IMG/VR virus record: IMGVR_UViG_3300014205_006828
Coordinates: 64,001 to 128,000 of that record
Direction: 5' to 3' (one strand)
From: a virus
Lineage: Duplodnaviria; Heunggongvirae; Uroviricota; Caudoviricetes
Length of the DNA stretch: 64,000 nucleotides
Shown: piece by piece, positions 7,305-22,519 of the stretch
How positions within the stretch are numbered: position 1 is the first letter of the stretch
Layout of the letters: the number at the start of each line of letters is the position of its first letter
Made by a program: the position numbers and the translations under genes
The notes under the pieces: generated by a model
The model's database searches: none
What the model was told of the DNA's origin: nothing
Seen by the model: only the letters and a program-made list of their open reading frames with translations

Positions 7305-7318
7305 TATTTACCTAAATA

Positions 7319-8248
7319 TTACATCTTTAGCACATATTTATTATTCAGATACCATTGGCAAGTCTGAGCAATTCCATCTCTGAACTTGAATTGTGGAGAC
7401 CACCCTAGTGCTTTGATTTTATCATTAGCCATAGCATATCTAGAATCAAAATCTCTCTCGACATGTTTTACTAACTCATGCCCTTTACTAAGGGCATTAC
7501 AAACTATTTGAACAACCTCAAGATTGCTAAATTCCTGTTTGGAAGTTATGTTATATATCTCTCCGCCAACCCAATTTTCGATAATAGCAAATATCGCAGA
7601 ACAAGTATCAAAGACATGAGTCCAATCTCTTGTTTGAGATCCAGTCCCATATATCTCAACTGGTTTCTCATCAAATATTCCATCAATAATATGAGGAATG
7701 AGACCCGAAACCGTCTGCCATGGCCCGTAATTATTGCTCAGGCGAATAATGTTGTAATCCAAACCAGAAGCGCCCTTGACGAACGCCTCGCCGCTGGCCT
7801 TGGTTGTTGCAAGAACTCCATGTGGATTGACTGGATCAGCCTCCTTCCGAAGCGGAACCTCCTCGGATCCAAGATCTCCATAAACTCGATCTGTGCTCAC
7901 GTAAATCAGCTTCGACTCCATCTTCAAGCATTCATTGACGACAGCCTTGGTGCCAAAAATGTTGCGGCTGTTCATCGACTGTTCATCTATAGTTTCAGCC
8001 GCACCATGTATTACAATATCTGGGCGTTCCTTCTCAAAGATTACATGTAGAATATGAGCATCCGTAATATCCGCAATATGGAACGAATGATCGGCGTTCA
8101 CATAGATATTATGAATGATATGGGAGTCTCTTACCCTGTCAATACTAGAAATGGTGTAGGGCAGCTTAGAATAGAAAACTTGTCGAATGAAGTTTCCGAA
8201 AATAAACCCTCCTGAACCAGTGACCATTACCTTCTTTCTTTTAGCCAT
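7319..8248 (-). CDS. Extended SDR, RmlB-like NDP-sugar 4,6-dehydratase homologue with degenerate catalytic motifs
   Basis: RmlB-like motifs HGAAE, YVSTDRVYG, RLSNNYGP, GSQTRDWTHVFD, YNI, HDxRY-like DSRYA. The third Gly of GxxGxxG, the active-site Glu and the YxxxK Tyr are substituted. Confidence 0.82.
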   Translation of the reverse strand: MAKRKKVMVTGSGGFIFGNFIRQVFYSKLPYTISSIDRVRDSHIIHNIYVNADHSFHIADITDAHILHVIFEKERPDIVIHGAAETIDEQSMNSRNIFGTKAVVNECLKMESKLIYVSTDRVYGDLGSEEVPLRKEADPVNPHGVLATTKASGEAFVKGASGLDYNIIRLSNNYGPWQTVSGLIPHIIDGIFDEKPVEIYGTGSQTRDWTHVFDTCSAIFAIIENWVGGEIYNITSKQEFSNLEVVQIVCNALSKGHELVKHVERDFDSRYAMANDKIKALGWSPQFKFRDGIAQTCQWYLNNKYVLKM

Positions 8249-9128
8249 GAAATAATCCCTTTTTGTATTGTTCTCTTAAAACATCTATACTTTTCCCAAA
8301 ATGACTCAGACACATATTTCTGACATCCTCATATGTCACAATACTACAACCAAACCCATGTTCTTTACAGTATGCCCGCAGAGCTGAAAATTTCGCTTCC
8401 TTCTTTTTTTTATTCTCATAACCCTTCACTTCCTCTATAACCTCGCCATCAATTTTAGCAACTAAAAAATCTGGTATATAGTTCTTCTGTTCACCATCGA
8501 ATTCATACTGGATTCTTATTTTATGTCTTTTTGTCCACGTTGTAACATTATCATCCGTATCAAGAACAATCATCCTAATATATTCTGTAAAGGAATCGAA
8601 CCTAAACACCTCTCCTGTTTTTTTTGATGTATAATATCCTTTAAGTCCATAATGACTAGGCTTGATATCAATTTGGCCACTTGATATTAGATTAGATCTT
8701 GTTATTGATATCTTTGCTCTGGTAGCTGAGGAATGCACCTTTCCAAAGAATGGATTTTTGGCACCAATAAATTTACTGCAGTATTCACTCCAGTAAATAT
8801 CAAACTCATCAGCTGATAGTTTGGCTTTCATCATATGGTATAGACCACCAAGATCGCTGTGAGTTTCTGACATTTTTTCCTTTGATGTCTTAGAATGGCG
8901 CTTCCCAAAGAAGTGATTCTTTTCTCCAAGACTTACATCGGATAAATGCTTTTTTTGTTCTTCTGATTTATGTCGCCCAAGATTAATGCACTTCTTTGAA
9001 CAATACCTTCTGCCACCAAACTTACATTTCTTACCAGGCAACCATTCTTCAGTTCCACACGATTCACACCTAATCAAAAACTCCCTAGTTCTTTTACCTA
9101 AAGGTCTCTCCGAAATCAACATATACAA
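8241..9128 (-). CDS. Putative free-standing homing endonuclease: Zn finger, NUMOD3 repeats and a TnsA-N-like PD-(D/E)XK domain; start may be the ATG at 9122
   Basis: CESC...C...YCSKKC; NUMOD3-like GEKNHFFGKRHSKTSKEKMS and GAKNPFFGKVHSSATRAKIS; YIPDFLV...IEEVKG. Confidence 0.8.
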   Translation of the reverse strand: MYMLISERPLGKRTREFLIRCESCGTEEWLPGKKCKFGGRRYCSKKCINLGRHKSEEQKKHLSDVSLGEKNHFFGKRHSKTSKEKMSETHSDLGGLYHMMKAKLSADEFDIYWSEYCSKFIGAKNPFFGKVHSSATRAKISITRSNLISSGQIDIKPSHYGLKGYYTSKKTGEVFRFDSFTEYIRMIVLDTDDNVTTWTKRHKIRIQYEFDGEQKNYIPDFLVAKIDGEVIEEVKGYENKKKKEAKFSALRAYCKEHGFGCSIVTYEDVRNMCLSHFGKSIDVLREQYKKGLFHG

Positions 9129-9189
9129 ATATCTAAATATTGATAGAGGCCACCACTACCTGTTACTAGAACTTTCTTCCTCTTAGCCA

Positions 9190-10347
9190 TTACTTCCTTA
9201 GTATTTCGTTCTTGATTGATCTTAGATGGAACATTATTCTATTGAGCTTGGTTTGAGGTGGCAGCTTGACTTCGATAGCTTTCAGGTCATCAAGCAACGA
9301 AGGCGAATCTGTTAATTTTGCCATCTTCTCATTGGCCATGAACATAACTTCAACATCAGTAACCTTCCTATCCCGATGTGAGAAAGGTAGGGCATGAGAC
9401 GTGAGAGCAGCAACACCACGCTTGCCTTTATCATTGGCATTCGGCTTTGGTGCGAGAGGCGACCTAACATTCGCAAAGCGCTTATCGTACGCCTCAACGG
9501 CCTTCTTGTACTCGGCAACTACCTCAAAAGCATTTTTGACATTGCGCGGCTTCTGGTAACCATCAATCACCTTTGGTTTACCATCAACAATGATTGTAGT
9601 GTAACCGTCTGGTTCTGCACGCCGAAAGACTCCTGGATAAATCTTCCTACGAAATTCAGCTTCTGCCTTGGTATTTGGGCTAGGAACTTTCAACTCTCGC
9701 AAGGGTAGATCAATTGGAGTTACCAACTTTCCTTCTACGGTTATCTTTAGTTGCTTTTTTGGTGGCAATGGCTTTTTTGGTGGCAATGGTTCAGCCATGT
9801 CTTTAGCTATTAACGGATCTATTCCTGCACGAATCAGAGCCTTTTCATATTGGTCAGTACCCTTGGCAACCACAGTCACATCTTTCGGAAGGCTGATTCG
9901 ATTCACCTTTCTACCTTCTGGCGTTCGCACTTCTCGCACATCAGCTGTGGGCTTTGTTACCGCATCTGGACCAGTAGCTTTCTTGATTAACTCTTCCAAA
10001 ATACGAGCATCTTCTGCCTCTCTAATAGATTCAGCATTCGACTTATCAATCTCTTCTGCCCGAAGCTTGTTGGCCTCTTGAAGGGCCTCTGGTAAATCCA
10101 GTTTACCAATAGGTATCCGTTGATCGAAGTCTATAATGGGTGGGTGGGTAGGTATGCGGACATATCCATCACACCAATTATTATCACTACCGAATTCCAA
10201 ATCCAATCTGGGCGCGCTATCCGTAAAAACTGCCCAGCTAATCTGTATGGATAGCTTTCCATTGTCCTCTTTGATATCTACATTAGAAACATGTACATTC
10301 TTCGGAATTACGGCATAGATAGCTCTTTTGATAATTTCAATATTCAT
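9190..10347 (-). CDS. Hypothetical Lys/Pro-rich protein (385 aa)
   Basis: Long ORF with SD-like AAAGGA; PLPPKK duplication; three DGY motifs; no recognised domain. Confidence 0.7.
   Translation of the reverse strand: MNIEIIKRAIYAVIPKNVHVSNVDIKEDNGKLSIQISWAVFTDSAPRLDLEFGSDNNWCDGYVRIPTHPPIIDFDQRIPIGKLDLPEALQEANKLRAEEIDKSNAESIREAEDARILEELIKKATGPDAVTKPTADVREVRTPEGRKVNRISLPKDVTVVAKGTDQYEKALIRAGIDPLIAKDMAEPLPPKKPLPPKKQLKITVEGKLVTPIDLPLRELKVPSPNTKAEAEFRRKIYPGVFRRAEPDGYTTIIVDGKPKVIDGYQKPRNVKNAFEVVAEYKKAVEAYDKRFANVRSPLAPKPNANDKGKRGVAALTSHALPFSHRDRKVTDVEVMFMANEKMAKLTDSPSLLDDLKAIEVKLPPQTKLNRIMFHLRSIKNEILRK
9753..9788. repeat. 18-bp in-frame tandem duplication (gcttttttggtggcaatg x2)
   Basis: Read directly from the sequence; encodes LPPKK(P/Q) twice. 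Confidence 0.85.
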
Positions 10348-10491
10348 CTTATCCTTTTGTCAGCAATCATGACCTCATTGGCAAATTATTTACTAAGCCA
10401 GAGTTAGATCTCTTATCTCTTAAATACCCTAAACATTTAGTTTTAAATTCCATCAATTCATCTACACAGTTGTCATAAATGCTTCGAGAAA

Positions 10492-11589
10492 TTAATAATG
10501 ACACAAAAACTCATTCACGGAAGATATCACTATTGATTGCTCTTCCCTAGTTATATCTGGGAAACTCGGTAGCATTATCGAACTTTGAGATATTAAATCT
10601 CCAACTTCATCATTACAAATCCAGACATTACGATTTTCTTTTAGATGAGCATGATACCTCATAGGATAAAACATTGGCCTAATGTCAAACCCTCGACTAT
10701 TAAAGAATGCTTGCTTAACCTCAAATGATTCATTCCTATTAGGGAGTCTAATTCCATACATCCACTTTGAATGGGAACTATCCTTCTCTGTCATTTGTAT
10801 AAGAACATCTTCTCTATTAGAAAAAGCCTCATCATAATAATTCCATATATCAGCTTTTCTATCTAATATTTCATCGGCATACTCTAATTGTCCCCTTAAT
10901 ATCGCCGCTTGAATATTAGTCATCCGATAATTGTATCCCAAGACATCGTGAATATACCTTTGACTTGTTTGCCCTTGACCGCGTAGTCTTTTGGCATAGT
11001 CAGCTAATTCATCATCATTTGTTACAAAAGCGCCACCCTCTCCTGATGTAACTGTTTTGTTACCAAAGAATGATAAAGCTGAGGCCAAGCCTAGGGACGG
11101 AACCTTCTGGCCACCGTAGCTGCCAAATAGCGCTTCACAGGCATCTTCCACCACAGGAATTCCAAATTTAAGAAGTTCTTGGACTGGTAGTGGATTACCA
11201 AGATTATGAACAGCAAGAATGGCCGAATTCTTAAAGTCAACCAGCTTAGCAACATGTTCCACATCGAAGTTCCATGTATTCAGATTTGTTCGAGCCATAT
11301 GCAGGCCGAAATTTTCTTGTAGGAATGCATTCCAGGCAGCAACATAGACCAGATTAGGCACGATAAGTTGGGTAACTTCTGGATGCTTATATTGTAGGCA
11401 TTTAGCTACCAAATGAATAGCGGCCGTTCCATTACATGTAAGAATAACATGTTTTGCACCAGTCCTTTCTGCAAGCTGTTCTTCCACGATAGTATTGTTG
11501 TCGTGCATAATGAGCCAACAATCCTCCAGCGCCTTCAGTGCATAGTTCTTGGAGTTTTTTGGCCAAAACGGTTTGTAGATAGGAATCAT
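10492..11589 (-). CDS. DegT/DnrJ/EryC1/StrS PLP-dependent sugar aminotransferase, perosamine-synthase-like
   Basis: NGTAAIHL, VVEDACEA, SFFGNKTVTSGEGG (PLP lysine loop), GYNYRMTNIQAAIL, DIRPMFYP. Confidence 0.92.
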   Translation of the reverse strand: MIPIYKPFWPKNSKNYALKALEDCWLIMHDNNTIVEEQLAERTGAKHVILTCNGTAAIHLVAKCLQYKHPEVTQLIVPNLVYVAAWNAFLQENFGLHMARTNLNTWNFDVEHVAKLVDFKNSAILAVHNLGNPLPVQELLKFGIPVVEDACEALFGSYGGQKVPSLGLASALSFFGNKTVTSGEGGAFVTNDDELADYAKRLRGQGQTSQRYIHDVLGYNYRMTNIQAAILRGQLEYADEILDRKADIWNYYDEAFSNREDVLIQMTEKDSSHSKWMYGIRLPNRNESFEVKQAFFNSRGFDIRPMFYPMRYHAHLKENRNVWICNDEVGDLISQSSIMLPSFPDITREEQSIVISSVNEFLCHY

Positions 11590-11615
11590 AGTTCAATATA
11601 TAACGTGTACTAGTC

Positions 11616-12569
11616 TCAAAATTTTGATGGTAGATGCTCTCTAATCAAATCAATCACCCTATGATCAGATACGTCATGCGATATGATTTTTGCCAGAACA
11701 GGAGGGGTGAATTGATGAGTCCAAATTGCTTCACTAGGCTTCAGAGTAGTGAAGGCCAAAAATGTCTTCGGATTATCCCAATAGTTTTGGCGATTTACCG
11801 CGAAACTGTAAGCTCCAGAACAGCGCCCTAAAATCAATGAGCAATGACCAGCCAAATACGCATTTTCATTTAGATCACACCCAACCTTCTGGATAATATC
11901 TGATGTCATGAATGTATTCGGCATTGGTTTGTAATTTGCCTCGGTATTAGAAATTAAAAAATCAATATAATCATACTCTTGTGCCAGTTTATGTATGATT
12001 TCAGAAAAGGAGAAATTTGTAGCCTGCCCAGATAAAGCACTTCCATTCGAGACGAAGACTAATGGACGAGAGCGGCTTCCCAACCATTCTTTTGCCTTAC
12101 CAATCGCAAAATGTTCAAAATTAATGTTCGGGAATAGTTCAATTCCGGAAATGGTATCCAGATCAATATCTAACCATTTAGCCGACTCCTTGAAATTCAT
12201 GTATAAACAATCAAATGTAAGATTGTACTTTTGAAAGTTATTCATATCTGCACAATACCAAGTATTGATGAATAAAACATTACCAACTATTGAACTTGGA
12301 AAATGAGCATGTAGACCGTAACGATTTGGTACATGAGTAAGATTTTTTATATCTGCTAATAGAGAAGAACCATTCCCATGACAATATTCACATGGTATAT
12401 TTCTCTTGGCACAAATATCAGATATAGCTCCGACCAAGCTCCTACTCACATGTATATCTCCATTGTGATATGTATTAAAGAAGATAACCTTTTTTATCAT
12501 ATAACAATCCACCCTGGAGGAATAAGATCTGTTATGGGATTTGATTTTTTTAATTTTGAACCAAACCAA
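11616..12569 (-). CDS. Putative GT-B fold (GT9-like) glycosyltransferase; start probably the internal MIKKVIFF
   Basis: N-terminal FFNTYHNGDIHVSR and C-terminal LILGRCSGAYSFA resemble the GD and 'ig.dSG..h.A' motifs of GT9-like proteins; lies in the glycosylation cluster. Confidence 0.5.
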   Translation of the reverse strand: MVWFKIKKIKSHNRSYSSRVDCYMIKKVIFFNTYHNGDIHVSRSLVGAISDICAKRNIPCEYCHGNGSSLLADIKNLTHVPNRYGLHAHFPSSIVGNVLFINTWYCADMNNFQKYNLTFDCLYMNFKESAKWLDIDLDTISGIELFPNINFEHFAIGKAKEWLGSRSRPLVFVSNGSALSGQATNFSFSEIIHKLAQEYDYIDFLISNTEANYKPMPNTFMTSDIIQKVGCDLNENAYLAGHCSLILGRCSGAYSFAVNRQNYWDNPKTFLAFTTLKPSEAIWTHQFTPPVLAKIISHDVSDHRVIDLIREHLPSKF

Positions 12570-13195
12570 TTACTAGGCGCTACAACTACTTTACCAACTC
12601 TTGAACTAAGCCAGGCTGGCCACCAAGAGAACGAACTATTGGCAATGATGAAATGAGAACAATTAACCATTCTTCGAAAATCAGAGGTTACAGAAGAAGT
12701 TTCATTTACAGTAAATTCATTACCAGTAAAGTTCTGTTTGCACCAAGCAACATCATCTGAAAATACCATGAATTTCTTCACAGGAATCTTTTCGACAGCA
12801 CTCATATAATACTGCATTGTTTGAATTGGGTGATGTTCTGGATACCTCAAATAATCTCCGCGTCTAACGTGAATACAGCAATATTCTTTTAAATCTTCTT
12901 CTGGAATTGGGGAAAGCATTTTCCTTATGTAATCCTGACAATTCTCAAAATATTTCCAGCTTTGAAAGTACCCAGATAGAGAACAACTATCTTGAAATGG
13001 TATGTTTGAATAGACGTATCGAGGTTCTTTGAAATAAGTTGACACTCGGATGGATGACTTGTCTACGAAACAATCTTCTGGTATATTTGTGAGAGATTGA
13101 TATTCCCATTTAGGGAAACAAAATGGTACGTTGTACTTCTTTGCATATCCGATAGTGGTAGCTATCTGAAATAATGCATTGCCCAGCACGACCAT
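12497..13195 (-). CDS. GT11 alpha-1,2-fucosyltransferase-family protein; true N-terminus appears to lie in another frame from 13226
   Basis: LGNALFQ, LSGYFQSWKYF, CIHVRRGDY, FSDDVAWCK, HFIIANSSFSWW, VVVAPSNWF. Confidence 0.9.
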   Translation of the reverse strand: MVVLGNALFQIATTIGYAKKYNVPFCFPKWEYQSLTNIPEDCFVDKSSIRVSTYFKEPRYVYSNIPFQDSCSLSGYFQSWKYFENCQDYIRKMLSPIPEEDLKEYCCIHVRRGDYLRYPEHHPIQTMQYYMSAVEKIPVKKFMVFSDDVAWCKQNFTGNEFTVNETSSVTSDFRRMVNCSHFIIANSSFSWWPAWLSSRVGKVVVAPSNWFGSKLKKSNPITDLIPPGWIVI

Positions 13196-13206
13196 GATTT
13201 CCTAAT

Positions 13207-14178
13207 TCATAAAACGTTGCGCACATTCATACTCCTAATTTCCTGGTATTTATCATATTTTCTTTTGAGAAATAACTTGGCATCATAATACATCCAATTA
13301 CATACAGCCACTACATCTATATATCTTCTAATTCTGATACGAAAAATATTTCGATCTTTTGAAATTTGCGTACAAACTCCAATGGAATTTTTCAGTACAA
13401 ATTCCAAATCAGAGCACATGTTATATGTGCCACATATATCAAAAGACGCATTATTTCTATTCCGATCAATATAAAGACAGCCATCTCCATCAAAATAACC
13501 TCTAACAAAGTGACTTCTCAAGTTTTGAGGTAACCAGAATGGAAAACTTAATCTCCATGTTTTTCTTGGAATTACGCCGTGTCTTATAAAATTATCTTTT
13601 GTGCGTTTATTGATTATTTTTAGGGCCAGTTGATTTTCTGCCCTTGGATTTTTTGGTCTATCTTTGTATAATGGTCCATTTATTCCAAATTCGTATTTTA
13701 TATCATTTAAAATATGAACATCAGAGGCTTTTAATTTTAAAGTAATTTGATTAAGTTTACGGTTTACATTTCCATCAGCATACAATAAACCAAGAAAATA
13801 AGCTTTATTTGGAGTGTCTATAGTATCAAAATATTCATTAATCTCGTACTTATTAAATTTATTTACGTAATTATATTGTTCGGTAGCCTTAATGTTATTT
13901 GATTTTAAAACTCGCCATACTTGAGTAACTGGAATTGATAAAGTTAAAGAAATATCCTGTATTGAATTATTTGAAATATACAAACGTATTATATTCTCAG
14001 ATTGAGCATTATATAAAGACATTTTAGTCTTAGTTTTAAGGCCAAGGCTTTTGAATCTTCTAAATAATGTTTCTCTTGAAACTGAATATTTTTTCGACAA
14101 ATAACTGACAGATACTCCACGACAATGTTCTGAATATATTGTGTAAATATCTAGCTCTATTTTAGCGCCCATTCTCAC
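13207..14178 (-). CDS. Free-standing double-motif LAGLIDADG homing endonuclease with N-terminal HTH-like repeats
   Basis: KAYFLGLLYADGNV and HFVRGYFDGDGCL; AT-rich; GTGA start/stop overlap with the upstream GT2 gene. Confidence 0.88.
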   Translation of the reverse strand: MRMGAKIELDIYTIYSEHCRGVSVSYLSKKYSVSRETLFRRFKSLGLKTKTKMSLYNAQSENIIRLYISNNSIQDISLTLSIPVTQVWRVLKSNNIKATEQYNYVNKFNKYEINEYFDTIDTPNKAYFLGLLYADGNVNRKLNQITLKLKASDVHILNDIKYEFGINGPLYKDRPKNPRAENQLALKIINKRTKDNFIRHGVIPRKTWRLSFPFWLPQNLRSHFVRGYFDGDGCLYIDRNRNNASFDICGTYNMCSDLEFVLKNSIGVCTQISKDRNIFRIRIRRYIDVVAVCNWMYYDAKLFLKRKYDKYQEIRSMNVRNVL

Positions 14179-14939
14179 CTCTCTAATATTCTCTGATATG
14201 GATGCATTGACCGTATTTTCCTTTCCAATTCAATCTGTAAGTTTCTATTTATCTTACCGTCATTGATTGGAGATGTGTAATTATACTCATACAGAATATC
14301 TGGAATGAACGATTGTTTCGGACCAGCCATCTCCAGCATCGGGAACATAGCTGCCAAATCACCAGACATCTTTAGCCATTGACCATTGTGCATCAAATCC
14401 TCTGGACGAATTTTCTTGTATAACCAAGCATAAAATGTTCGCAGGTGAGAAGAGCACCACCTGTAGCGCCTAAACGCCCCTGCCTCGATAATTTCCCTGG
14501 GGATCTGGTAAGAACAACCGATCTCTCGATCATGGTGAGAGATATATTGCCCGTAGGTCATCCATATCCCTTTGTCGTACTCCTCACTAAGCCTGGATAG
14601 GACATTCGTATTTTCCAGCCAATCATCACCATCCAACATCACAATGATTTCATCATCATCGCAGCTATGAACCATGTTGTAGATGTTATGCACCGCGTAC
14701 AAACGCTCTGTATTACGAACCAAGGTGACACGCTTATCTTTGTCCTTCTCGGCTAACAATCTATCAACTTCATCGGCAGTTCCATCGGTAGAGCAATCAT
14801 CAGAATAAATTGCTCTGAAATGAGGATACTCCTGGGTCAAAACTGACATCAAGGTCTTTTCACACCAAATACGATTTTGATAGCTTGGGATTACAATTAC
14901 AAAATGATTCATATCATCCTTTAATATACAATGCATCAC
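14175..14939 (-). CDS. GT2-family glycosyltransferase
   Basis: FVIVIPSYQN, SDDCSTDGT, DxD in MLDGDDWL, GDLAAMFPMLEMAG. Confidence 0.9.
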   Translation of the reverse strand: MMHCILKDDMNHFVIVIPSYQNRIWCEKTLMSVLTQEYPHFRAIYSDDCSTDGTADEVDRLLAEKDKDKRVTLVRNTERLYAVHNIYNMVHSCDDDEIIVMLDGDDWLENTNVLSRLSEEYDKGIWMTYGQYISHHDREIGCSYQIPREIIEAGAFRRYRWCSSHLRTFYAWLYKKIRPEDLMHNGQWLKMSGDLAAMFPMLEMAGPKQSFIPDILYEYNYTSPINDGKINRNLQIELERKIRSMHPYQRILER

Positions 14940-15525
14940 CCCAAGTTACACCATCCCACCACGTATCAACGCGCTTAAACTTATACTCGCCTAAGAAGTT
15001 ATCTATATCTTCCACCATAGCGCAGCCTTTATACAACTCGGCCCTATTAACCTCTGCATAGACATAATCTATATTTTTTAGTGTCTCAACTCCCCCTTTG
15101 AAAACTTCCAGTTCGTATCCTTGAACATCAATATTGATGAAGTTATATAGCTGGAAATCAAGTGGTAGCAAATCTAACTTAGTAACATCCACTTCAACTT
15201 TACTATTGAATATGATATTTGGATACTGATTTAGATGTTTTTTAGGTTGCAATAATGAAGATGATTGCCCCTGATTAGCTTCTTCTGTAAACATCTCTGT
15301 TTTCCCTTCAAAGTTACCAAGCGCGGTATTGAATAGCAAACATTCCACACCAACATTTTGAGAAAGGATTCCAAAGACTTTTGGTTGAGGCTCTACAAAT
15401 ACTATATTGGTAAGCCCAAAGTTTTTATAAGAAGAGTATTCTTGACCATAATGACCGCCGATATGAATTACGCCACGAATCTTCAAATCAAACTCATAAA
15501 CAAGAGCACGAATAGGCTTGAGCAT
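14914..15525 (-). CDS. FkbM-family SAM-dependent methyltransferase (start trimmed to MLKPIRAL)
   Basis: GVIHIGGHYGQE, FVEP, INIDVQGYELEVFKG, VYAEVN, WGDALY. The longer track start at 15681 overlaps the divergent GT10 gene. Confidence 0.9.
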   Translation of the reverse strand: MLKPIRALVYEFDLKIRGVIHIGGHYGQEYSSYKNFGLTNIVFVEPQPKVFGILSQNVGVECLLFNTALGNFEGKTEMFTEEANQGQSSSLLQPKKHLNQYPNIIFNSKVEVDVTKLDLLPLDFQLYNFINIDVQGYELEVFKGGVETLKNIDYVYAEVNRAELYKGCAMVEDIDNFLGEYKFKRVDTWWDGVTWGDALYIKG

Positions 15526-15533
15526 AAACTCTT

Positions 15534-15541
15534 GATATATC
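15534..15541. promoter_or_regulatory. Palindromic GATATATC between divergent starts; candidate bidirectional phage promoter element
   Basis: The only sequence between the ATGs at 15525 (-) and 15549 (+) is 23 bp. It gives GATATAT on both strands, 9 and 8 nt before the two start codons. Confidence 0.5.
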
Positions 15542-15548
15542 CACGAAT

Positions 15549-16466
15549 ATGTGCAAAGAAGTAAATATTGTATACTACGCCAGGCAAAGTAGAACTCTTG
15601 AATACGAAGGCGAAGAAGGTAAAGTATGGATGTCAAATTGCCGCGATCCATCGATGCCAAACATATTTTTTGGAGATGCAAAAGATCCTCAATCAGAAGA
15701 CAGTATTGTTGTTTTAGAACCGATAGTTACCACTCCATCACACTACGATCTAAACTACCTTTCGAAATTCAAAACGGTATTTAGCTGGGCGAATAAATTC
15801 TTTGAAACCTCGGCGATCAAGGATAAATTTGTACCAATCAACTGCGGTTCCGAACTATGTGATTCTAGGGTGACTAATGTAAAACTGACATGGCCAACAT
15901 GGGAAGAACGTATTAATGGTGTAGTTATTATATCTTGTAATAAAACCTCTACACATCAAGCGTCTATATATTGTCTTAGGGAAATGTTAGCAGATCTATT
16001 TTATGAAAATGGATTTGTAGTTGATTGGTTTGGCCATAGCAATCCAGGTAATAGATATTACCGTGGGTCTATTCCTGAAAAGATAAGAGTTCTATCTAGG
16101 TATAGGTTTGGTATATGTACCGAAAATACCTATGACCCAATATATTCGCACAACTATTTTACAGAAAAACCATTACACGTAATGTATAGTGGTACAGTCC
16201 CTTTATATCTGGGGGCATATAACGTTGATGATATACTTCCCAAAGATACGTTCTTTGATCTAAGAAACTTTGTCATCAAAAAACCAAACCAATCCCCAAT
16301 ACTACTTAAAGAACCACTAATGGAAGCAATACGAACATTCTCAAATGAAAAATTTAATCAATTCACCATTGCAGCAACTAAATGCTTGAATGATCCAATG
16401 GGAATCTTCTACCAGACAAGTATGCCGAGATGCTATAAAACTATACTTGAAACTCTATGTCGCTAA
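15549..16466 (+). CDS. GT10 alpha-1,3/4-fucosyltransferase-family protein
   Basis: GT10 motif YRFGICTENT...NYFTEK...SGTVPLYLGA; only plus-strand gene in the cluster. Confidence 0.85.
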   Translation: MCKEVNIVYYARQSRTLEYEGEEGKVWMSNCRDPSMPNIFFGDAKDPQSEDSIVVLEPIVTTPSHYDLNYLSKFKTVFSWANKFFETSAIKDKFVPINCGSELCDSRVTNVKLTWPTWEERINGVVIISCNKTSTHQASIYCLREMLADLFYENGFVVDWFGHSNPGNRYYRGSIPEKIRVLSRYRFGICTENTYDPIYSHNYFTEKPLHVMYSGTVPLYLGAYNVDDILPKDTFFDLRNFVIKKPNQSPILLKEPLMEAIRTFSNEKFNQFTIAATKCLNDPMGIFYQTSMPRCYKTILETLCR

Positions 16467-17123
16467 GATATTTGTTGTAGAGGTATCTATTTGATCATAC
16501 AAAAACAAATCATTATCACCAGATAAGCTTTGTATTTTATACCCATATCCTGTAAGTATTTCTAAAATATCCGATACATCATATCCAGAATCATTTGCTG
16601 TAGTTATTCCGTATTCTAATAATAATACAGGTTTGTGAGTTAGGGTATTAGAGGCTCCTTGTAGGATATGCTTCTCAACTCCCTCAACGTCCATTTTGAT
16701 TATAGTAGGTGGAAGTAAGTTTAAGTAATCAATCACATGATCTAGAGTATCTAATTGAATATTTTCAACTCCAACATATCTTAAAACATTCACATTTCTT
16801 CTAAACAGAGAATTACAACCAGAAACATTATAGAGGTTTATTTCATGTTCACCAAACTCATTAAATAGGCCTAATTTAATCGGTTTCACGTTTGGAAAAT
16901 TTGATGTATTTTCACACAATACTGAAAAAGTTTTCGTGACAGGTTCAAATGAATATATCTGCTTACACACACCAGCTAACCTAACGGAATAATATCCATA
17001 ATTTGCTCCAATATCATAAAATACAGAATTACAATCAACCAATCTTTGTAAATGGTAATATACATTTTTCTCGCAATATTCTCCATTAGAAAAAAACTGC
17101 TTCATATCGTCTGGTATTTCCAT
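16455..17123 (-). CDS. FkbM-family methyltransferase
   Basis: FYDIGANYGYYS, SFEP, TLDH, IKMDVEGVEKHILQGA. Confidence 0.92.
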   Translation of the reverse strand: MEIPDDMKQFFSNGEYCEKNVYYHLQRLVDCNSVFYDIGANYGYYSVRLAGVCKQIYSFEPVTKTFSVLCENTSNFPNVKPIKLGLFNEFGEHEINLYNVSGCNSLFRRNVNVLRYVGVENIQLDTLDHVIDYLNLLPPTIIKMDVEGVEKHILQGASNTLTHKPVLLLEYGITTANDSGYDVSDILEILTGYGYKIQSLSGDNDLFLYDQIDTSTTNILAT

Positions 17124-17124
17124 A

Positions 17125-17784
17125 TTATTCCTTTGTTATTGTTACATAGATAAGATTTGAGTGATATTTAAAATCATCAACCATACCAATTCTAAGATAG
17201 CTTCCTTTAACCCACTCATCTCCATAATCCCTAATTACAGAACCATGAACATGATAAGATCGTATTTTTTTAGATGGATTAATTACCTTCAATCCTGAGC
17301 GGTGAAGTTCATATGCAAATTTTCCATCACAGCCAAGAATTCCAAGATAGAAATTTATATCACTTACTATTATTGGAGGATGAAAAATCCAAGCATCGAA
17401 CGACATGCCGTCACTCTCAATCCATGGACGAACATGCCATGGACCATTGCCACTTACAGCAGGAAACCATCGAGTAAGGCAAAAAGCCACCCCTGGTTCC
17501 GGTATTGCCAATGAATCATCAAAAAAGATATCTGAATTAGCAATCGCAACTGGACCAGATAATGTATTTGCGTAATCAACAAGTACCTTAAAAGTAGGCC
17601 GCGAATCTACTTTAAAAACACACACATTACCTATATTCTTTACAAAATCAACAACAGATTCATCCTCTGTTACCACATGAATGGAGTCAATTAATACATT
17701 TGCTGAGTTTTTGGTTAGGGCAAATAAAAATTCCTTATTACGCTCGTTGCGTTTGGATAATACGAATGATGTTACGATGATCAT
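17125..17784 (-). CDS. Putative GT-A-like protein (DxD type)
   Basis: AIANSDIFFD, CLTRW, SFDAWIF, LGILGCDGKFAYEL, HVH; lies in the glycosylation cluster; family not assigned. Confidence 0.5.
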   Translation of the reverse strand: MIIVTSFVLSKRNERNKEFLFALTKNSANVLIDSIHVVTEDESVVDFVKNIGNVCVFKVDSRPTFKVLVDYANTLSGPVAIANSDIFFDDSLAIPEPGVAFCLTRWFPAVSGNGPWHVRPWIESDGMSFDAWIFHPPIIVSDINFYLGILGCDGKFAYELHRSGLKVINPSKKIRSYHVHGSVIRDYGDEWVKGSYLRIGMVDDFKYHSNLIYVTITKE

Positions 17785-18537
17785 TTAATCCTTAAATGGA
17801 ATATAAATTGGCTTGCGTTTCTGCATATACAAGCCGCAGTTTCTTTGAAATACTCCTACAAGGTCATTATGCTGCTGGGTTTTGAATTTACGATACTCAT
17901 TGACCTCATTATTGTCTTCGCCCAAGTGAATGCCCATCTGCTTGACATAGCCTAATTTGAAACCGGCAACTCTGGCACGTATTCCAAAATCACTATCTTC
18001 TAACCCATATTTATTATACTCGGTATTGAAGAATCCGATCATTTGATGTAATTGCTTTCGAAATACCATACAGGCCGTTCCTAGATTTCCAGCTGGCTTA
18101 TCTTGGAACGTGCAATCATTCAATGTTACCAAAGGATATGGTTTTGGTTCGAAGTTCACTCCTATAGCTCCGTAGCTTTTGTTAGCCTGGAGAATTTTGA
18201 TACTATCTTCCAACCAACTTTTCGGCATCTGTACATCATTATCAATTGAACAGTACCAAATTGGTTTCATCTCATCAGCCTTCTTGAGTGCCAGATTGCG
18301 CCCGATGGCAATTCCTTTATTCTCTGGAAGAAAAATCTTATGAAACTCTTGAAGAGGGGCACTGTTGTAGACACCCACAATATTTTCAAGGTATTCCACA
18401 GTCCCATCCTTGGACCCATTATCCACTACAACCAAAGAAAACGGATGCTCGGTACTGGTTAGTAAAGCTTCTATAGTCTTCTTGGTAAGATCAAGTCGAT
18501 CATATGTTACCATCATTAAAACAGTGTCAGTTTTCAT
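17785..18537 (-). CDS. GT2-family glycosyltransferase (start trimmed to MKTDTVL)
   Basis: VVVDNGSKDGT, ENKGIAIGRN, SIDNDV, YGLEDSDFGIR; AAAGGA upstream of the ATG at 18537. Confidence 0.88.
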   Translation of the reverse strand: MKTDTVLMMVTYDRLDLTKKTIEALLTSTEHPFSLVVVDNGSKDGTVEYLENIVGVYNSAPLQEFHKIFLPENKGIAIGRNLALKKADEMKPIWYCSIDNDVQMPKSWLEDSIKILQANKSYGAIGVNFEPKPYPLVTLNDCTFQDKPAGNLGTACMVFRKQLHQMIGFFNTEYNKYGLEDSDFGIRARVAGFKLGYVKQMGIHLGEDNNEVNEYRKFKTQQHNDLVGVFQRNCGLYMQKRKPIYIPFKD

Positions 18538-18668
18538 TATTTTTCCTTTCATTTGGGCAATAACCATAAGAGCCGGTAATGTGATTCGCCACAACTCTGG
18601 TGAATAATTCTACGATTCTGAGAACTGTATTTTTTGCTTAGAAAATATTCCCTATACAGAGGCATCGT

Positions 18669-19628
18669 TCATAAGCCCTCGCAAATCCCAAAAACATCTA
18701 TCGGATAAAGGTTTCGATCTGTGAATATATCGTTGTTCGCGCCTAAGAACTCGGCATTTTTGAATAGGCTATATTGGTTATCTATAGGCTTGGATATCAA
18801 CTTGGCTTCTGATATCATCAAGGCCATCAATGACCAATTAATATCATTGGACATTATTACCCATGATTTTTTGATGACTTGAAGTATGTGTCTTGGATTA
18901 TATTCAACTGCTAATATATTAGACCCATGAAATAGATTTGTGTTGTTTGTGAAGACAATAACTTTCCATCCTTTATGAGAAGCTAGTTGTGAGAACTCCT
19001 TGAAGTTCTGCAGACTCCACTTTAACAGATCTTTATTAGTCTCGTTCAGAATGATAGAGATAATCTTGGATATTTGGCGTATTCGACCTGTTTTTTGGAG
19101 CTCATCTATGAACTCAGTCCCCAAATTTCTAAGCTTTGGAGCATAACTTTCCCAAGGGATCATGATGTTTCTAGATATCTGTTCTACAACTGGCGCTGTT
19201 ACTTCCTCTGGATACTTTCCCCAATAGCTTGTGCGCTGCATGTAATTGTTCAAAACATTAAGGTAGGCGTTTCCCTTGCCATCCAAAAATAACGGAACCG
19301 GATACTGCTTTAGGGTTTCTTTTGTGAGATTGATGAGACTGATCTTACACAAGCCTTGCAGCCGTACCAAGAAGGAATACTCTTGATTACCAAGCCAATA
19401 GACCTTGTGCGCAGAGTCAATAGATAAAATAGCTTCAACTGCGCTTAAAGACAAAAATGACTCTAATAAGCCGCCGAACGCAGTAATGATGATATTGCGG
19501 CCATCAAGAATCTTATGCCAGGTTTCAAAATCAATTTCTGGAATGACATATTTTCCCCGCTCAATTTTCCATGGGATTCCAGGAGAAAATGGAAAGTACC
19601 TGGCTTTGTATTTGCGCTTGGGTTTCAT
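18669..19628 (-). CDS. Divergent GT9-like (GT-B) protein
   Basis: AFGGLLESFLSLSAVEAI resembles the GT9 N-terminal 'GGlGD..l..p.l.al' motif; KWSLQNFKEF resembles the 'kW....f' motif; VIMSNDINWSLMA sits at the 'gnDSG..HlA' position. Confidence 0.45.
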   Translation of the reverse strand: MKPKRKYKARYFPFSPGIPWKIERGKYVIPEIDFETWHKILDGRNIIITAFGGLLESFLSLSAVEAILSIDSAHKVYWLGNQEYSFLVRLQGLCKISLINLTKETLKQYPVPLFLDGKGNAYLNVLNNYMQRTSYWGKYPEEVTAPVVEQISRNIMIPWESYAPKLRNLGTEFIDELQKTGRIRQISKIISIILNETNKDLLKWSLQNFKEFSQLASHKGWKVIVFTNNTNLFHGSNILAVEYNPRHILQVIKKSWVIMSNDINWSLMALMISEAKLISKPIDNQYSLFKNAEFLGANNDIFTDRNLYPIDVFGICEGL

Positions 19629-20413
19629 TAGTCATCATGCTTATAGACGCCCTCCCACTTTTTGCGAAATAGCGTGCAATTAGTGTTCATCATCAGTTTG
19701 TGCATGGGGTTCTTTTTTAGGGAGGCACTCTCCTCATGAAAGATGTTGGTCTTACCGCAATACATAATCTTCTTATTCAGGCGATACTTAACTGTCAAGC
19801 AAAGATCAATATCCTCAAAAGACCAGAAATACCCTTCGCACATTCCAACACGCCCACTCTTGTTGGTGGTACATGCCCTTCGATAATCACCTGCCCGAAT
19901 GAGAACTACAGCCGCCGTGACAGCTTGGAATTCTCTATTTTTTTGTGATGCCGAATCACCAACCTCTTGATGTCGATAGTGGTACGGAAAGTAGTTATAC
20001 TTCTTAGAGAAGTAAACTCCCGCATGTTGCAACCGTTGGCCATCAGGATACAAAATCCTAGCGCCCACCATTCCAACTTCATCAGTAAGCAGTTTGTGCA
20101 TCTCAACAACCGAAGCCTTGTCCCCAAACCAAAGATCGTTGTTGAGCAGCATAATCACATCGTCATCGGCGGGCTTGGCTCGCTCGAACAGGATATTCAT
20201 ACCACTAGCGAAAGAGTCAGTATTATGGCCACAAAAGAACGGTTCTATCCTGCCATTTTGGATGGATGTCAAATATTCGGCGGAGCCATCCTTGGAACCA
20301 TTGTCCTTTATCCACCACTTGTAATCAAACATCTCCACAGCTGGAATTAGAGACTTATGTAGCTTCTCAATTTTATCTTTAGCATTCCAGTGCAAAGTTA
20401 GTATATGGATCAT
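19628..20413 (-). CDS. GT2-family glycosyltransferase
   Basis: KDNGSKDGS, MLLNND, LQHAGV, AVTAAVVLIR, FEDIDLCL, HEESAS. Confidence 0.9.
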   Translation of the reverse strand: MIHILTLHWNAKDKIEKLHKSLIPAVEMFDYKWWIKDNGSKDGSAEYLTSIQNGRIEPFFCGHNTDSFASGMNILFERAKPADDDVIMLLNNDLWFGDKASVVEMHKLLTDEVGMVGARILYPDGQRLQHAGVYFSKKYNYFPYHYRHQEVGDSASQKNREFQAVTAAVVLIRAGDYRRACTTNKSGRVGMCEGYFWSFEDIDLCLTVKYRLNKKIMYCGKTNIFHEESASLKKNPMHKLMMNTNCTLFRKKWEGVYKHDD

Positions 20414-20635: not shown

Positions 20636-20662
20636 ACGTTCCTTGCCTGTAAAAATATGCAA

Positions 20663-21367
20663 TTATACATATTTCTTACTCCATAGTTCAATAAACGTTT
20701 TCCGAGACTGTGTATATAACGCTGAAAGCCCAGCCTTCTTGCCGGTAACTTTACCGATGTGCCGAACAGGAACTTCTATAATCTTCAATTCAATACCCAT
20801 CTTCTGCGCTCGAAGAGATAGGTCAGTATCCTCGAAGTAGGAAATGAATCTGGTATTAAACGGCCCAGTATCACCATCTAAAATCAACCTCTGCCACGTC
20901 TTGGTGGAAGCCGTGATGTTCCAGCCGCTCAGGTACCCATACCCGCGCGTGGGGAGCTTGGAAGCCTCGCAAATGAAGTTGAATTGCTCATCCAAATACC
21001 CAGCAGTTGGACCGGCGATGTAGCCATCTTGTGCGGCCTGAAGCAATGGCTCTGTCCACGTTTCAACGTCCTTACCCTCGGCGAATACCCGGATGTCATT
21101 GTTGAGGAACATGACATTCTCATAGCCAAGCTCTACGGCGCGTTTAAATCCGCTATTGCAACCTTTAGAAAACCCCTGGTTAGAGGAATGACGGACTATC
21201 TCAAGCCTATTGGAGTTTCTTAGCTGGGAGTTGCCATCAGTACTTCCGTTATCAACAATCACCAATAAATGATTGTCTGGAAGAGCAGCTAAATCGATAA
21301 TGGCTCTCTTAGTATAGGCCCATTGATTCCAAACCGGGATTACGATAGCTAGTTTTTTTTCAATCAT
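20663..21367 (-). CDS. GT2-family glycosyltransferase (start trimmed to MIEKKL)
   Basis: LAIVIPVWNQ, IVDNGSTDG, NQGFSKGCN, MFLNNDI, YFEDTDLSLR. Confidence 0.9.
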   Translation of the reverse strand: MIEKKLAIVIPVWNQWAYTKRAIIDLAALPDNHLLVIVDNGSTDGNSQLRNSNRLEIVRHSSNQGFSKGCNSGFKRAVELGYENVMFLNNDIRVFAEGKDVETWTEPLLQAAQDGYIAGPTAGYLDEQFNFICEASKLPTRGYGYLSGWNITASTKTWQRLILDGDTGPFNTRFISYFEDTDLSLRAQKMGIELKIIEVPVRHIGKVTGKKAGLSALYTQSRKTFIELWSKKYV

Positions 21368-22481
21368 GGCACAACTCCAAAATCTGATTAGCTGCATTCT
21401 CCCAGGTAAACTTCTTGGCCGTCTCCGTCATGTTTGGTGAAAATTTAGCCTTCAAAGTATCAAACTCAGAAACTGCTCTCTGTAGTTTACGAGCTGCATC
21501 ATTTGTATCTATTTCAAAATGCACGGCGTGAGGGGTTGACTCCCAATACTGGTGATCTCTGGGAGCTCTGACAATATTTCCATCGATAAGAAGTGAGTTA
21601 TCATCATTGCAGAAATCAAGTTGTCCACCATATCTTGGAACCACATTAATAATACCAGAGGCAAGAGCTTCCAAAGACGGTAAGTGCCAACATTCAGCAA
21701 ATGTAGCTGAGAAATTTATATCACAGGATTTATACAAGTCTGCGATATTAGGGATGTATGAATAGACAAACTCAACCTCAGCGTGCAGAGGAAACTTCGT
21801 CTGAAACGTCTTAAATAACCCAGTAAAGTCAATGTCAAACGGATGATCCTTCTTGTTCTGCTTGAAAACCTTAGCTATCAAACATACATCATCTTCTTTG
21901 GTAAAAGCCTGCCCAAAAGCCTTCAATGCAAGATGCAAAGCCTTTCTACGATGTGGTTGTGCAATGTTGAGAAGTATCTTTTTTGTCTTTTTTGTATTTA
22001 GTTTGAAAGTATTATCACTCTCAAAATCTTGAAGGTTAATTCCATGAGGAACAACTACCATATTCTCATTAGGAATTCCCATATTAATGAATACTTCTTT
22101 TGAGAAATTAGAGGATGGAAGAACAAGGTCAGTTGATTTATAGAACTTAGCAAATCCTTTCAGCAATGATTGGTTCTTATCAACTGACCTTTTATTGTTG
22201 TACTCGTAATTCCAAATACCAAATCTGTTCTTGGTACCATGACTTAGATAGTTGGGCCAGTTATGAGGAGCTGTATAACTAATCTGACAGTCGTATTGAC
22301 CAGTAGGATTTTGTCTAACAAAAGGAAGTAAGTCACTTGGAGCAAATCTCTGTTCAAATCCGTCTGTTGAAACAAATTCTACATCATGACCTAATTTTAT
22401 AAGTGCTCTACCTAAATTCTGTCCTACAATTTGCCATGAATGATTTTGGCCAAATAGAAATTGTTGAAACTTTATCCTCAT
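21360..22481 (-). CDS. GT4-family (GT-B, retaining) glycosyltransferase
   Basis: VLPSSNFSKE, VVPHGI, PHRRKA, ExxxLPSLEA motif (AECWHLPSLEALASG), GGQLDF. Confidence 0.88.
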   Translation of the reverse strand: MRIKFQQFLFGQNHSWQIVGQNLGRALIKLGHDVEFVSTDGFEQRFAPSDLLPFVRQNPTGQYDCQISYTAPHNWPNYLSHGTKNRFGIWNYEYNNKRSVDKNQSLLKGFAKFYKSTDLVLPSSNFSKEVFINMGIPNENMVVVPHGINLQDFESDNTFKLNTKKTKKILLNIAQPHRRKALHLALKAFGQAFTKEDDVCLIAKVFKQNKKDHPFDIDFTGLFKTFQTKFPLHAEVEFVYSYIPNIADLYKSCDINFSATFAECWHLPSLEALASGIINVVPRYGGQLDFCNDDNSLLIDGNIVRAPRDHQYWESTPHAVHFEIDTNDAARKLQRAVSEFDTLKAKFSPNMTETAKKFTWENAANQILELCHD

Positions 22482-22519
22482 ATGAATTGAAAAGGCTATA
22501 AATTACATCTTCTCGACTA

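Follow-up and report, generated by a model that had tools for sequence, protein, structure and literature searches.

This report concerns a 64,000-nucleotide stretch of DNA (hereafter the window; bases 64001-128000 of a 131,325-base IMG/VR virus record) from an uncultured huge phage, and within it an island of 17 genes at positions 7319-22481, 16 of which lie on the minus strand and one, encoding a GT10-family enzyme, on the plus strand. Ten of the genes encode glycosyltransferases (GT) or GT-like proteins, namely four GT2, one GT4, one GT10, one GT11, two proteins with a GT-B fold resembling that of GT9, and one with a GT-A fold. In our estimation there is an even chance that the island is a lineage-conserved cytoplasmic glycosylation module for the fibre or other particle proteins of huge myophages, employing the GDP-sugars of the host. 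This link to virion proteins is favoured because the transferase core shows the conservation of a structural module, is inherited together with an adjacent gene whose product is marked by Asp-Gly-Tyr (DGY) tripeptides, and belongs to a lineage without lipid-carrier machinery. An earlier note, made from the sequence alone, had described the region as a co-oriented glycan-building cluster. Every enzyme family that it listed was recovered in its place by Pfam, NCBIfam and fold or structure comparison. The co-orientation holds for all genes except that of the GT10 enzyme, and the designation as a glycan-building cluster needs to be restricted, since three of the genes do not encode glycan enzymes, i.e., a LAGLIDADG gene, a NUMOD3/TnsA-like gene, and the gene of a 385-amino-acid (aa) protein.

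Conserved transferase core

The genes of the core are the following, listed from high to low coordinates:

21360..22481, minus strand: GT4-family GT-B transferase, first gene of the core (Glyco_transf_4, 34.6 bits against 28.5; Glycos_transf_1, 29.3 against 26.4)
20663..21397, minus strand: GT2 (PF00535, 39.4 bits)
19628..20413, minus strand: GT2 (PF00535, 31.4 bits)
18669..19628, minus strand: 319-aa GT-B protein with a GT9-like fold, which marks the lineage (AF2 model, pLDDT 94)
17785..18594, minus strand: GT2 with a Glyco_transf_7C segment (PF00535, 64.8 bits; PF02709, 25.7 bits)
15549..16466, plus strand: GT10, alpha-1,3/4-fucosyltransferase family (PF00852, 27.5 bits against 23.9)
14175..14939, minus strand: GT2 (PF00535, 56.6 bits; 90% identity to the ortholog in the related locus L002)
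12497..13226, minus strand: GT11, alpha-1,2-fucosyltransferase family (PF01531, 105 bits against 23.9), with the sequence IHVRRGDY

All four GT2 genes score above the curated PF00535 cut-off of 23.3, and both GT-B halves of the GT4 protein (PF13439 and PF00534) exceed their cut-offs. The GT4 gene has the same position in the relatives L011, L012, and L035. The NCBIfam calls agree with the Pfam families.

An alignment-based scan of IMG/VR returned 22 loci with the gene of the 319-aa GT-B protein, on contigs of up to 459 kb; a locus search with a single sequence, the 994-aa fibre-like protein described below, gave no match, and an alignment query was needed. In every relative examined the island is in the same place, between the fibre genes and a block made up of a short-chain dehydrogenase/reductase (SDR) gene, the tubulin gene, and replication genes. 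The core order GT4-GT2-GT2-GT9-like-GT2...GT10(inverted)-GT2-GT11 is kept where the GT9-like protein is only 32-34% identical, and therefore the core behaves like a component of the structural module rather than a sporadic accessory island. It is nearly always preceded by a dockerin-like protein of about 1000 aa. In the remote loci the products follow one another, by length, as ~1000, ~370, ~250, ~270, GT-B, ~255, ~700, an inverted ~315, and then several of ~245 aa; the Pfam order in L035 is Dockerin_1, GT4, GT2, GT2, (GT-B), GT2, an unknown protein, GT10 (inverted), GT2, GT11, and Glyco_trans_1_2. The conserved backbone predicted from these comparisons is one of about eight transferases.

The 319-aa protein has 78 homologs, mostly from huge-phage contigs, and its top Foldseek matches are WaaC (E value 1.5e-9), WaaF, 3tov, and TibC. 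A second GT-B protein of 294 aa, listed below among the variable genes, has homologs in phage records of 636 and 735 kb. Both models were predicted from alignments of homologs, and both folds are nearest to the GT9 heptosyltransferases (TM score ~0.5), with GT9 clusters among their neighbours in the structure atlas. For neither protein did Pfam or NCBIfam give a match to GT9 (PF01075), and their family profiles find no PDB sequence. As far as the models go, the term GT9-like, which the earlier note had applied to the pair, is valid for the predicted fold and not for a sequence family. The two proteins are not designated as paralogs here, as profile comparison (hhalign) was negative and no sequence kinship is detectable.

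Between the two GT2 genes upstream of the 319-aa protein is a gene-free stretch of 250 nt (20413-20663). At this site L011 has a DUF4379 protein, and L012 has a GT2-like gene, a small open reading frame (ORF), and an R2K ATP-grasp gene. The gap is probably a deletion scar, to judge from these relatives.

None of the 17 island products has a membrane segment, in keeping with the earlier description of the enzymes as cytoplasmic. A second glycan cluster was sought elsewhere on the record and none was found; the search revealed a single additional GT2/GT7C gene and a weak GT2-like one. The former, a GT2/Glyco_transf_7C-type transferase, is far from the island and outside the window (G000:C1:15567-16340, plus strand).

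Variable genes

In relatives, the genes that vary are those for tailoring and for precursors. In the phage studied here they comprise five genes:

17125..17784, minus strand: 219-aa GT-A-fold glycosyltransferase-like protein ('DxD protein'; no Pfam match)
16455..17123, minus strand: FkbM methyltransferase 2 (PF05050, 49.2 bits; TIGR01444, 84.2 bits)
14914..15525, minus strand, start at ATG 15525: FkbM methyltransferase 1 (PF05050, 57.3 bits; TIGR01444, 66.1 bits)
11616..12500, minus strand: 294-aa GT-B protein with a GT9-like fold (AF2 model, pLDDT 93; Foldseek matches 3tov, E value 1e-6, TibC, and WaaC)
10492..11589, minus strand: DegT-family pyridoxal-phosphate (PLP) aminotransferase, perosamine-synthase-like (PF01041, 245 bits)

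Both FkbM genes exceed the TIGR01444 cut-off of 37.7. The structure neighbours of the 219-aa protein are viral clusters annotated as putative glycosyltransferase (TM 0.9) together with GT2 and RXYLT1-type folds, and a homolog with 34% identity is located within the sugar cluster of Synechococcus phage S-SKS1. The DegT protein has the PLP lysine motif SFFGNK, and its best PDB matches are to GDP-perosamine synthase (3bn1/3dr4; E value 1e-46), while its score is below every NCBIfam equivalog cut-off (LegC, PseC, WecE). The corresponding set consists of a DegT gene, an acetyltransferase, and three SDRs in L004/L012, of a nucleotidyltransferase with an intein, a HAD phosphatase, and three SDRs in L005, and of a STELLO-like gene and an SDR in L003/L011.

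The DGY motif and candidate acceptors

Two genes on either side of the transferases encode proteins which are rich in DGY:

22740..25724, minus strand: 994-aa fibre-like protein (Pfam Dockerin_1, 32.2 bits), immediately upstream of the island
9190..10347, minus strand: 385-aa Lys/Pro-rich protein with three DGY (no Pfam or NCBIfam match)

The tripeptide occurs 46 times on the record, where 6.5 occurrences are expected. The excess resides in the tail module (36 against 2.4, i.e., 15-fold over; P 7e-30), and DGY is at background in the island enzymes (1 against 0.75) and in the rest of the contig (6 against 3.2). Control tripeptides are at background, all three positions of DGY are specific, and the sequence contexts of the occurrences are unrelated. 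The 994-aa protein, which includes a dockerin/EF-hand-type Ca-binding segment, has six DGY (0.16 expected), and the orthologs of about 1000 aa that precede the GT core have 5-13 in 16 of 19 related loci (about 0.2 expected), with control tripeptides at 0-4. No DGY enrichment is present in the sugar-cluster region of S-SKS1 (ratio 0.7). The 994-aa protein is thus regarded as a candidate acceptor, and the apparent tie between the GT core and a DGY-marked fibre-like protein across the lineage is circumstantial support for a link to virion proteins.

The three DGY of the 385-aa protein compare with an expectation of 0.06 (P 4e-5). This protein is kept upstream of the SDR in relatives, and a pair of its DGY survives in the orthologs of L002, L003, and L005, in which the flanks have diverged beyond recognition. 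It is a candidate acceptor or, alternatively, a candidate virion accessory protein. Outside the window, a 369-aa protein (G000:C1:53981-55090, minus strand) also contains three DGY (0.06 expected); its gene adjoins the weak GT2-like gene (G000:C1:53208-53981).

Genes for priming, export and sugar activation

Searches were extended to ten related records, three of which are 91-100% complete, and control genomes matched in these searches. No priming transferase of the Bac_transf or the WecA/MraY type (Glycos_transf_4) was found in the 131-kb record or in the ten relatives, in agreement with the earlier claim that an undecaprenyl-phosphate priming transferase is missing. The claimed absence of Wzx, Wzy, and an ABC exporter stands as well: Polysacc_synt (Wzx, PF01943), Wzy_C (Wzy/WaaL, PF04932), and ABC2_membrane (PF01061) were not found in any of the ten relatives (the record itself was not searched for these three), and the only ABC_tran-like match of the record is a sub-threshold P-loop match in DnaB. 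Host genes could substitute for a flippase, polymerase, ligase, or exporter.

A nucleotidyltransferase was not found in the 131-kb record, and NTP_transferase is present in two of the ten relatives. The record likewise has no gene of the thymidylate synthase family (Thymidylat_synt), and one of the ten relatives has a ThyA-like gene (298 bits). The search with Tet_JBP was silent in every control genome and therefore carries no weight.

The RmlB-like protein

The last gene of the island in the direction of transcription encodes a homologue of nucleotide-sugar dehydratases:

7319..8248, minus strand: RmlB-like extended SDR (TIGR01181, 230 bits against a cut-off of 365), adjoining the tubulin gene

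Its nearest families are the dTDP-glucose 4,6-dehydratases, and it can be aligned end to end with the solved structures 6bi4 and 2hun. The characteristics of RmlB are not retained. Apart from the low equivalog score, the catalytic Tyr of the YxxxK motif is replaced with Leu146 and the Glu of the Asp-Glu pair with Arg121; Lys150 and Asp120 are kept. All 16 of the nearest homologs (65-95% identity) are without the Tyr, and 67 of 118 members of the family are canonical. Relative to the L002 ortholog (86% identity) the dN/dS ratio is 0.077, the same as for the DegT gene and a helicase, although dS is saturated and the ratio is rough. These characteristics suggest that the SDR is retained under purifying selection, probably not as a dehydratase, and it looks like a conserved pseudoenzyme. 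Of five genomes examined, four have the SDR gene directly beside that of tubulin, and in the fifth, L005, a small ORF separates the two.

GT10, GT11 and the homing endonucleases

The following features bear on the two fucosyltransferase-family genes and on their surroundings:

15534..15541: palindrome GATATATC, in the 23-nt gap (15526-15548) between the divergent GT10 and FkbM genes
13207..14178, minus strand: free-standing LAGLIDADG homing endonuclease (PF14528, 40.9 bits)
8241..9128, minus strand: NUMOD3 and TnsA-like endonuclease, a homing-endonuclease gene (PF07460, 56.1 bits; PF08722, 34.3 bits)

The GT10 sequence YRFGICTEN...YFTEK aligns with the FucT motif of the alpha-1,3-fucosyltransferases 9s6a and 2nzw, one from H. 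pylori and one from a plant. The motif (F/Y-x-F-x-ENxxxxxY-TEK), together with the PF00852 match, places the protein in the family. The GT10 gene is also inverted in L002, L003, L011, and L035. The palindrome GATATATC is retained in L002 and L003, and the gap of L011 has the variants AATATATC and TTATATAT; it may be regarded as a candidate bidirectional promoter element. The word GATATAT also precedes three tail genes by 9-25 nt (35879, 47257, 51433); across the window it is not enriched (23 against 16.3 expected).

In the GT11 gene the HxRRxD motif accompanies the PF01531 match, and the reading frame is disrupted. Relative to the intact orthologs of L002, L003, and L011 there is a +1 frameshift, one extra base near position 13181, after codon 15. 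The orthologs start M(T)ATF(L/I)ELGH(H/A)GR(F/I)GN, whereas the ancestral ATG at 13226 reads MCATFYELGNHGRAG and is then out of frame. The longest remaining frame, from an internal ATG at 13195, encodes 232 aa; it is 13 residues short and is without the N-terminal ELGHxGR segment, so that the N-terminal G-R-x-G-N segment of an intact frame is missing. Two contigs, assembled in different studies at 14x and 82x depth, share the exact letters of the frameshift, and it is therefore not the error of a single assembly. The GT11 step has probably been lost or crippled (weakened) in this phage, as far as the reading frame indicates.

The LAGLIDADG gene is inserted precisely at the junction of the GT2 stop with the GT11 start, and at this junction it is missing in L002, L003, and L011. 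Its stop is 26 bases from the frameshift and its 3' end overlaps the old GT11 start. The frameshift may have arisen as collateral damage of homing, or it may serve to protect the target site. An Rfam scan revealed no group I intron or other RNA family, and the LAGLIDADG gene is therefore treated as free-standing. The NUMOD3/TnsA-like gene, just upstream of the SDR, is missing in L002, L003, and L004 and is at the same spot in L005. The relative L002, with its 86% identical SDR, has neither homing endonuclease and no tubulin intein. Elsewhere in the relatives, inteins or LAGLIDADG domains are found in DnaB, a helicase, ribonucleotide reductase, and a nucleotidyltransferase; by this sequence evidence the phage lineage is heavily colonised by homing elements. 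Four metagenome runs compared with the island gave no endonuclease-free or frameshift-free variant, and the joints listed are short-sided and look like other organisms.

The earlier note had envisaged an autonomous amino-deoxysugar pathway. This part of the proposal is not upheld, as the SDR is without its catalytic Tyr and Glu and the 131-kb record is without a nucleotidyltransferase. The frameshift of the GT11 gene is a separate point against the earlier reading.

Genome and position of the island

The record has a CheckV completeness of 31%, and about 30% of the genome is thus in hand. The same proteins are also encoded on a contig of 463 kb, from which a genome of about 460 kb is deduced. 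The sequence is contained in landfill and groundwater metagenomes. Almost all genes of the record are on the minus strand, and the surroundings of the island, in transcription order, include:

52228-54696: tail sheath, first in transcription order
35910-36338: gp25-like protein, downstream of the sheath
32576-35854: baseplate-wedge protein, also downstream of the sheath
after the baseplate genes: 2281-aa fibre-like protein with a weak ConA-like lectin segment
22520..22723, minus strand: 67-aa ORF with a lipoprotein-type signal peptide (lipobox LLLSC) and a tail rich in Gly/Ala
4512-7304: tubulin homolog split by an intein, after the island

The tubulin gene is followed by helicase, DnaC-like, and DnaB-like genes. 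The 67-aa ORF is placed between the fibre-like gene and the GT4 gene, and a homolog of 44 aa occurs at the equivalent spot in L011; it could be a spanin-like or an exclusion lipoprotein. The earlier statement that the block directly follows the baseplate genes has to be corrected accordingly, because the 2281-aa and 994-aa fibre-like genes and this lipoprotein ORF intervene.

Megablast with the island gave no match among deposited phages, and for the tail sheath only remote matches to deposited phages were obtained, namely to Bacillus phage G and an Eggerthella phage. Scans of positions 7000-23000 for sigma-70-type promoters and terminators gave no excess over shuffles. A survey of 6-mers in 74 upstream regions returned mostly ribosome-binding-like words, with a modest ATATAT/ATATGT signal. 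A look-up of RNA data sets gave none that contain the island or its DegT gene, and proteomic data were likewise sought and not found.

The stretch 7000-23000 is letter-identical in contigs of two runs from different studies, one of landfill (2018) and one of groundwater (2022); one or both of the runs may be the source of the record. The objection, raised with the earlier note, that the block might be chimeric host DNA has thus been addressed: the island is phage DNA and not a chimera, because it is identical in two assemblies and keeps its position in over 20 contigs of related huge phages.

Proposed pathway and its alternatives

We propose that the soluble core (GT4, three GT2, the GT9-like GT-B, then GT10, GT2, and GT11) would build an oligosaccharide directly on particle proteins. 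The likeliest acceptors would be the dockerin-like neighbour of about 1000 aa and other DGY-bearing tail proteins, and perhaps the 385-aa protein. The variable distal set (two FkbM O-methyltransferases, the GT-A protein, the second GT9-like enzyme, and the perosamine-synthase-like aminotransferase) would tailor the glycan, the FkbM enzymes by O-methylating the product. Enzymes of the GT10 and GT11 families typically use GDP-fucose. The substrate of perosamine synthase is GDP-4-keto-6-deoxymannose, and GDP-fucose too is derived from GDP-mannose via GMD. Both donors, GDP-fucose and GDP-4-keto-6-deoxymannose, would come from the GDP-mannose/GMD pool of the host; dependence on host GDP-sugars is proposed because the phage's own dehydratase-like gene appears inactive and no activating enzyme accompanies it. 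The RmlB-like SDR would be kept in a non-catalytic role, and the GT11 reaction would be the one probably missing or impaired. The occurrence of TibC, a cytoplasmic protein O-heptosyltransferase, among the fold matches of both GT9-like proteins is counted in favour of this proposal. More tentatively, the eight-GT core and the DGY tag may constitute a previously undescribed system of protein glycosylation, in which DGY would be the sequon that a soluble phage enzyme recognises on folded tail, baseplate, and fibre proteins, attachment would be to Tyr or Asp, and the product would be a fucosylated, O-methylated amino-sugar oligosaccharide with a phage-specific outer part.

Several observations weigh against an acceptor in the virion. 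A protein-priming transferase was not identified among the ten GTs. Two of the six DGY sites of the 994-aa protein are within dockerin-like, Ca-binding-type loops, and DGY may be a structural or Ca-binding feature. The adjacency of the GT core and the fibre gene may reflect only the general synteny of a lineage in which gene order is broadly conserved. The same-strand gene run does not stop at the island but takes in the tubulin, helicase, DnaC, and DnaB genes; since it thus includes replication genes, the co-orientation is silent on late timing. Finally, every enzyme family of the island is one that is typical of O-antigen or capsule loci. The latter point leads to an alternative to which we give a distinctly smaller, yet substantial, probability, namely that the phage remodels the host envelope. 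The phage GTs would extend an undecaprenyl-linked intermediate of the host (e.g., Und-PP-GlcNAc from host WecA), and the host flippase and ligase would display a fucosylated, methylated, perosamine-bearing glycan on lipopolysaccharide (LPS), capsule, or periplasmic proteins, so that receptors are masked from superinfecting phages or recognition by grazers or other cells is altered during a long infection. Not only are GT2, GT4, GT9-like, GT10, GT11, FkbM, perosamine synthase, and RmlB-like SDR genes the standard content of an O-antigen locus, but the distal part of the island also varies among related phages as O-antigen loci do. Transferases for O-antigen are also peripheral, without membrane segments, and missing phage exporters are therefore not decisive. 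Host-surface modification is moreover the published reading for the homologous clusters of P-SSM2 and other jumbo cyanophages (PMC7824862), pelagimyophages (PMC7029224), and S-SCSM2R (PMC12801897). This alternative would not predict that the order and content of an eight-GT core are kept down to 32% identity if the enzymes had to fit host-specific acceptors in different hosts. Nor was a gene for priming, flipping, polymerising, ligating, or ABC export found in the ten related records, including the three near-complete ones, and envelope remodelling leaves the co-inherited DGY-rich neighbour and the DGY-bearing island protein unexplained.

A product that stays in the cytoplasm, i.e., a glycolipid, a glycosylated small molecule, a free oligosaccharide, or a glycosylated non-virion phage protein (e.g., the 385-aa protein) acting inside the cell, appears unlikely. 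The GT-B folds do match the natural-product GTs CalG1, GtfA, and UrdGT2 too, and the genes of the 385-aa protein, the inactive SDR, and tubulin form a conserved trio at the end of the island. However, the best fold matches are GT9 heptosyltransferases of LPS or protein rather than natural-product enzymes, aglycone-building genes are not found in or near the island, and the conserved pairing is with a fibre-like gene. Hypermodification of DNA, in which the GTs would put sugars on a modified base of the phage and so block host nucleases, is the least probable of the explanations and in our view very improbable. Phage GTs related to those of LPS or teichoic acid do put mono- to trisaccharides on 5-hydroxymethylcytosine, their clusters are sometimes near structural genes (bioRxiv 10.1101/2023.12.21.572611), and the island abuts the replication module. 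The known systems require a cytosine methyltransferase together with a 5mYOX/TET enzyme, or else a hydroxymethylase. A thymidylate-synthase-family gene is absent from the record, which represents about 30% of the genome, and present in a single relative of ten; the searches did not extend to a C5-methyltransferase. With its ten GTs, its two O-methyltransferases, and its amino-sugar step, the island furthermore goes far beyond any described DNA glycan. Glycosylation of particle proteins in the cytoplasm is for these reasons retained as the working proposal.

Comparison with known systems

To our knowledge, sugar-gene clusters of big phages have been known for twenty years without their target ever having been shown, and modification of the host surface is the default reading. 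The gene content of the island is not new in kind. The jumbo cyanophages P-SSM2, S-SCSM1, S-SCSM2R, and S-SKS1 and the pelagimyophages also have large sets of GT2, GT1/4, GT10, and GT11 genes together with NAD-dependent epimerase/dehydratase paralogs, often by tail-fibre genes. The sugar cluster of P-SSM2 has 15 genes, among them one to four epimerase/dehydratase paralogs and members of several GT families (PMC7824862), S-SCSM2R has 13 GTs including GT10, GT11, GT1, and GT2 (PMC12801897), and in pelagimyophages the GT-rich islands lie beside the tail fibres in the host recognition cluster (PMC7029224); the function of all these clusters is experimentally open (PMC7824862, PMC12801897, PMC7029224). 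These clusters differ in being described as sporadic, polymorphic even between close relatives, and often equipped with sugar kinases, nucleotidyltransferases, and isomerases, i.e., with a full precursor supply, whereas the phage described here has an eight-GT backbone of conserved order, a linked DGY-rich fibre-like gene, no sugar-activation genes in the 131-kb record, and a degenerate dehydratase-like gene. The lineage offers a sharper handle than the cyanophage clusters, in that it combines a GT backbone with the conservation of a structural module, a physically linked candidate acceptor bearing a short, countable motif, and genomes without lipid-linked glycan export. Four features are new, namely that a lineage of huge phages has a conserved backbone of several GTs linked to a fibre gene rich in DGY, that whole genomes of relatives give evidence for absent export functions, that a degenerate SDR is under purifying selection, and that homing endonucleases have invaded the glycan locus, one of the insertion sites being accompanied by a frameshift. 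An apparently dead but selected RmlB paralog, homing endonucleases in a glycan locus, and a frameshift associated with an insertion are also of relevance to the study of selfish elements and pseudoenzymes.

Glycosylation of phage virions has, as far as we know, been proven only in mycobacteriophages. The cassettes of Freeman et al. 2023 reportedly comprise two to four genes. In mycobacteriophages such as Che8, Corndog, and Myrna, soluble phage GTs, sometimes with a methyltransferase, are encoded next to structural genes and act on particle proteins in the cytoplasm. The acceptors are the C-terminal tails of capsid and tail-tube subunits. Phage GTs make the glycans of capsid and tail tube (summarised in PMC12619734). 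The island agrees with this type in that soluble phage GT genes adjoin structural genes. It differs in having ten GT-like genes, two methyltransferases, and an amino-sugar enzyme, with an internal DGY on fibre, baseplate, and sheath proteins as the candidate tag of a putative glycan. The earlier statement that the glycan would be more elaborate than any described for phage virions is accordingly tenable relative to the proven mycobacteriophage cases and not relative to the jumbo-cyanophage clusters, which are of similar size and family composition (PMC7824862, PMC12801897).

The two GT-B proteins share their fold with two bacterial heptosyltransferases of autotransporters, TibC and Aah, and with the LPS enzymes WaaC and WaaF (CAZy GT9), and the fold is used by TibC to glycosylate protein directly in the cytoplasm; with 9-14% identity and a TM score of ~0.5, donor and acceptor are not inferable from this likeness. 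The clusters for sugar hypermodification of DNA, with methyltransferase, 5mYOX, and GT genes, resemble the island in that GTs have been recruited from cell-envelope pathways and are sometimes near structural genes (bioRxiv 10.1101/2023.12.21.572611), whereas the number and kinds of enzymes in the island point to a much larger, methylated glycan bearing an amino sugar.

Among eukaryotic viruses, the Mimivirus viosamine cluster serves the glycosylation of giant-virus fibrils, and giant-virus pathways use 6-deoxy or 4-amino-6-deoxy sugars. In chloroviruses, viral GTs and methyltransferases assemble the capsid glycans in the cytoplasm, with attachment at non-canonical sequons, and the PBCV-1 enzymes (A064R, A111/114R) resemble those of the island in forming a cytoplasmic multi-GT pathway with O-methyltransferase steps and in being without signal peptides (PMC7019647). 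Giant eukaryotic viruses differ in having their own synthesis of nucleotide-sugars, whereas the phage would depend on the GDP-sugars of its host. Orthology between these systems and the island genes was not detected, although no giant-virus protein was compared directly. For a large, methylated glycan made in the cytoplasm, the chlorovirus capsid pathway (PMC7019647) would be the closest functional analogy. If the virion proteins are indeed the acceptors, elaborate glycan coats would no longer be confined to giant eukaryotic viruses but would occur in phages too, with consequences for the stability and adhesion of particles, for host recognition, and for grazing in soils and groundwater, and a new sequon and new protein glycosyltransferases could become available for glyco-engineering. 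If the host surface is the target instead, the island would represent phage-driven rebuilding of that surface by a lytic huge phage.

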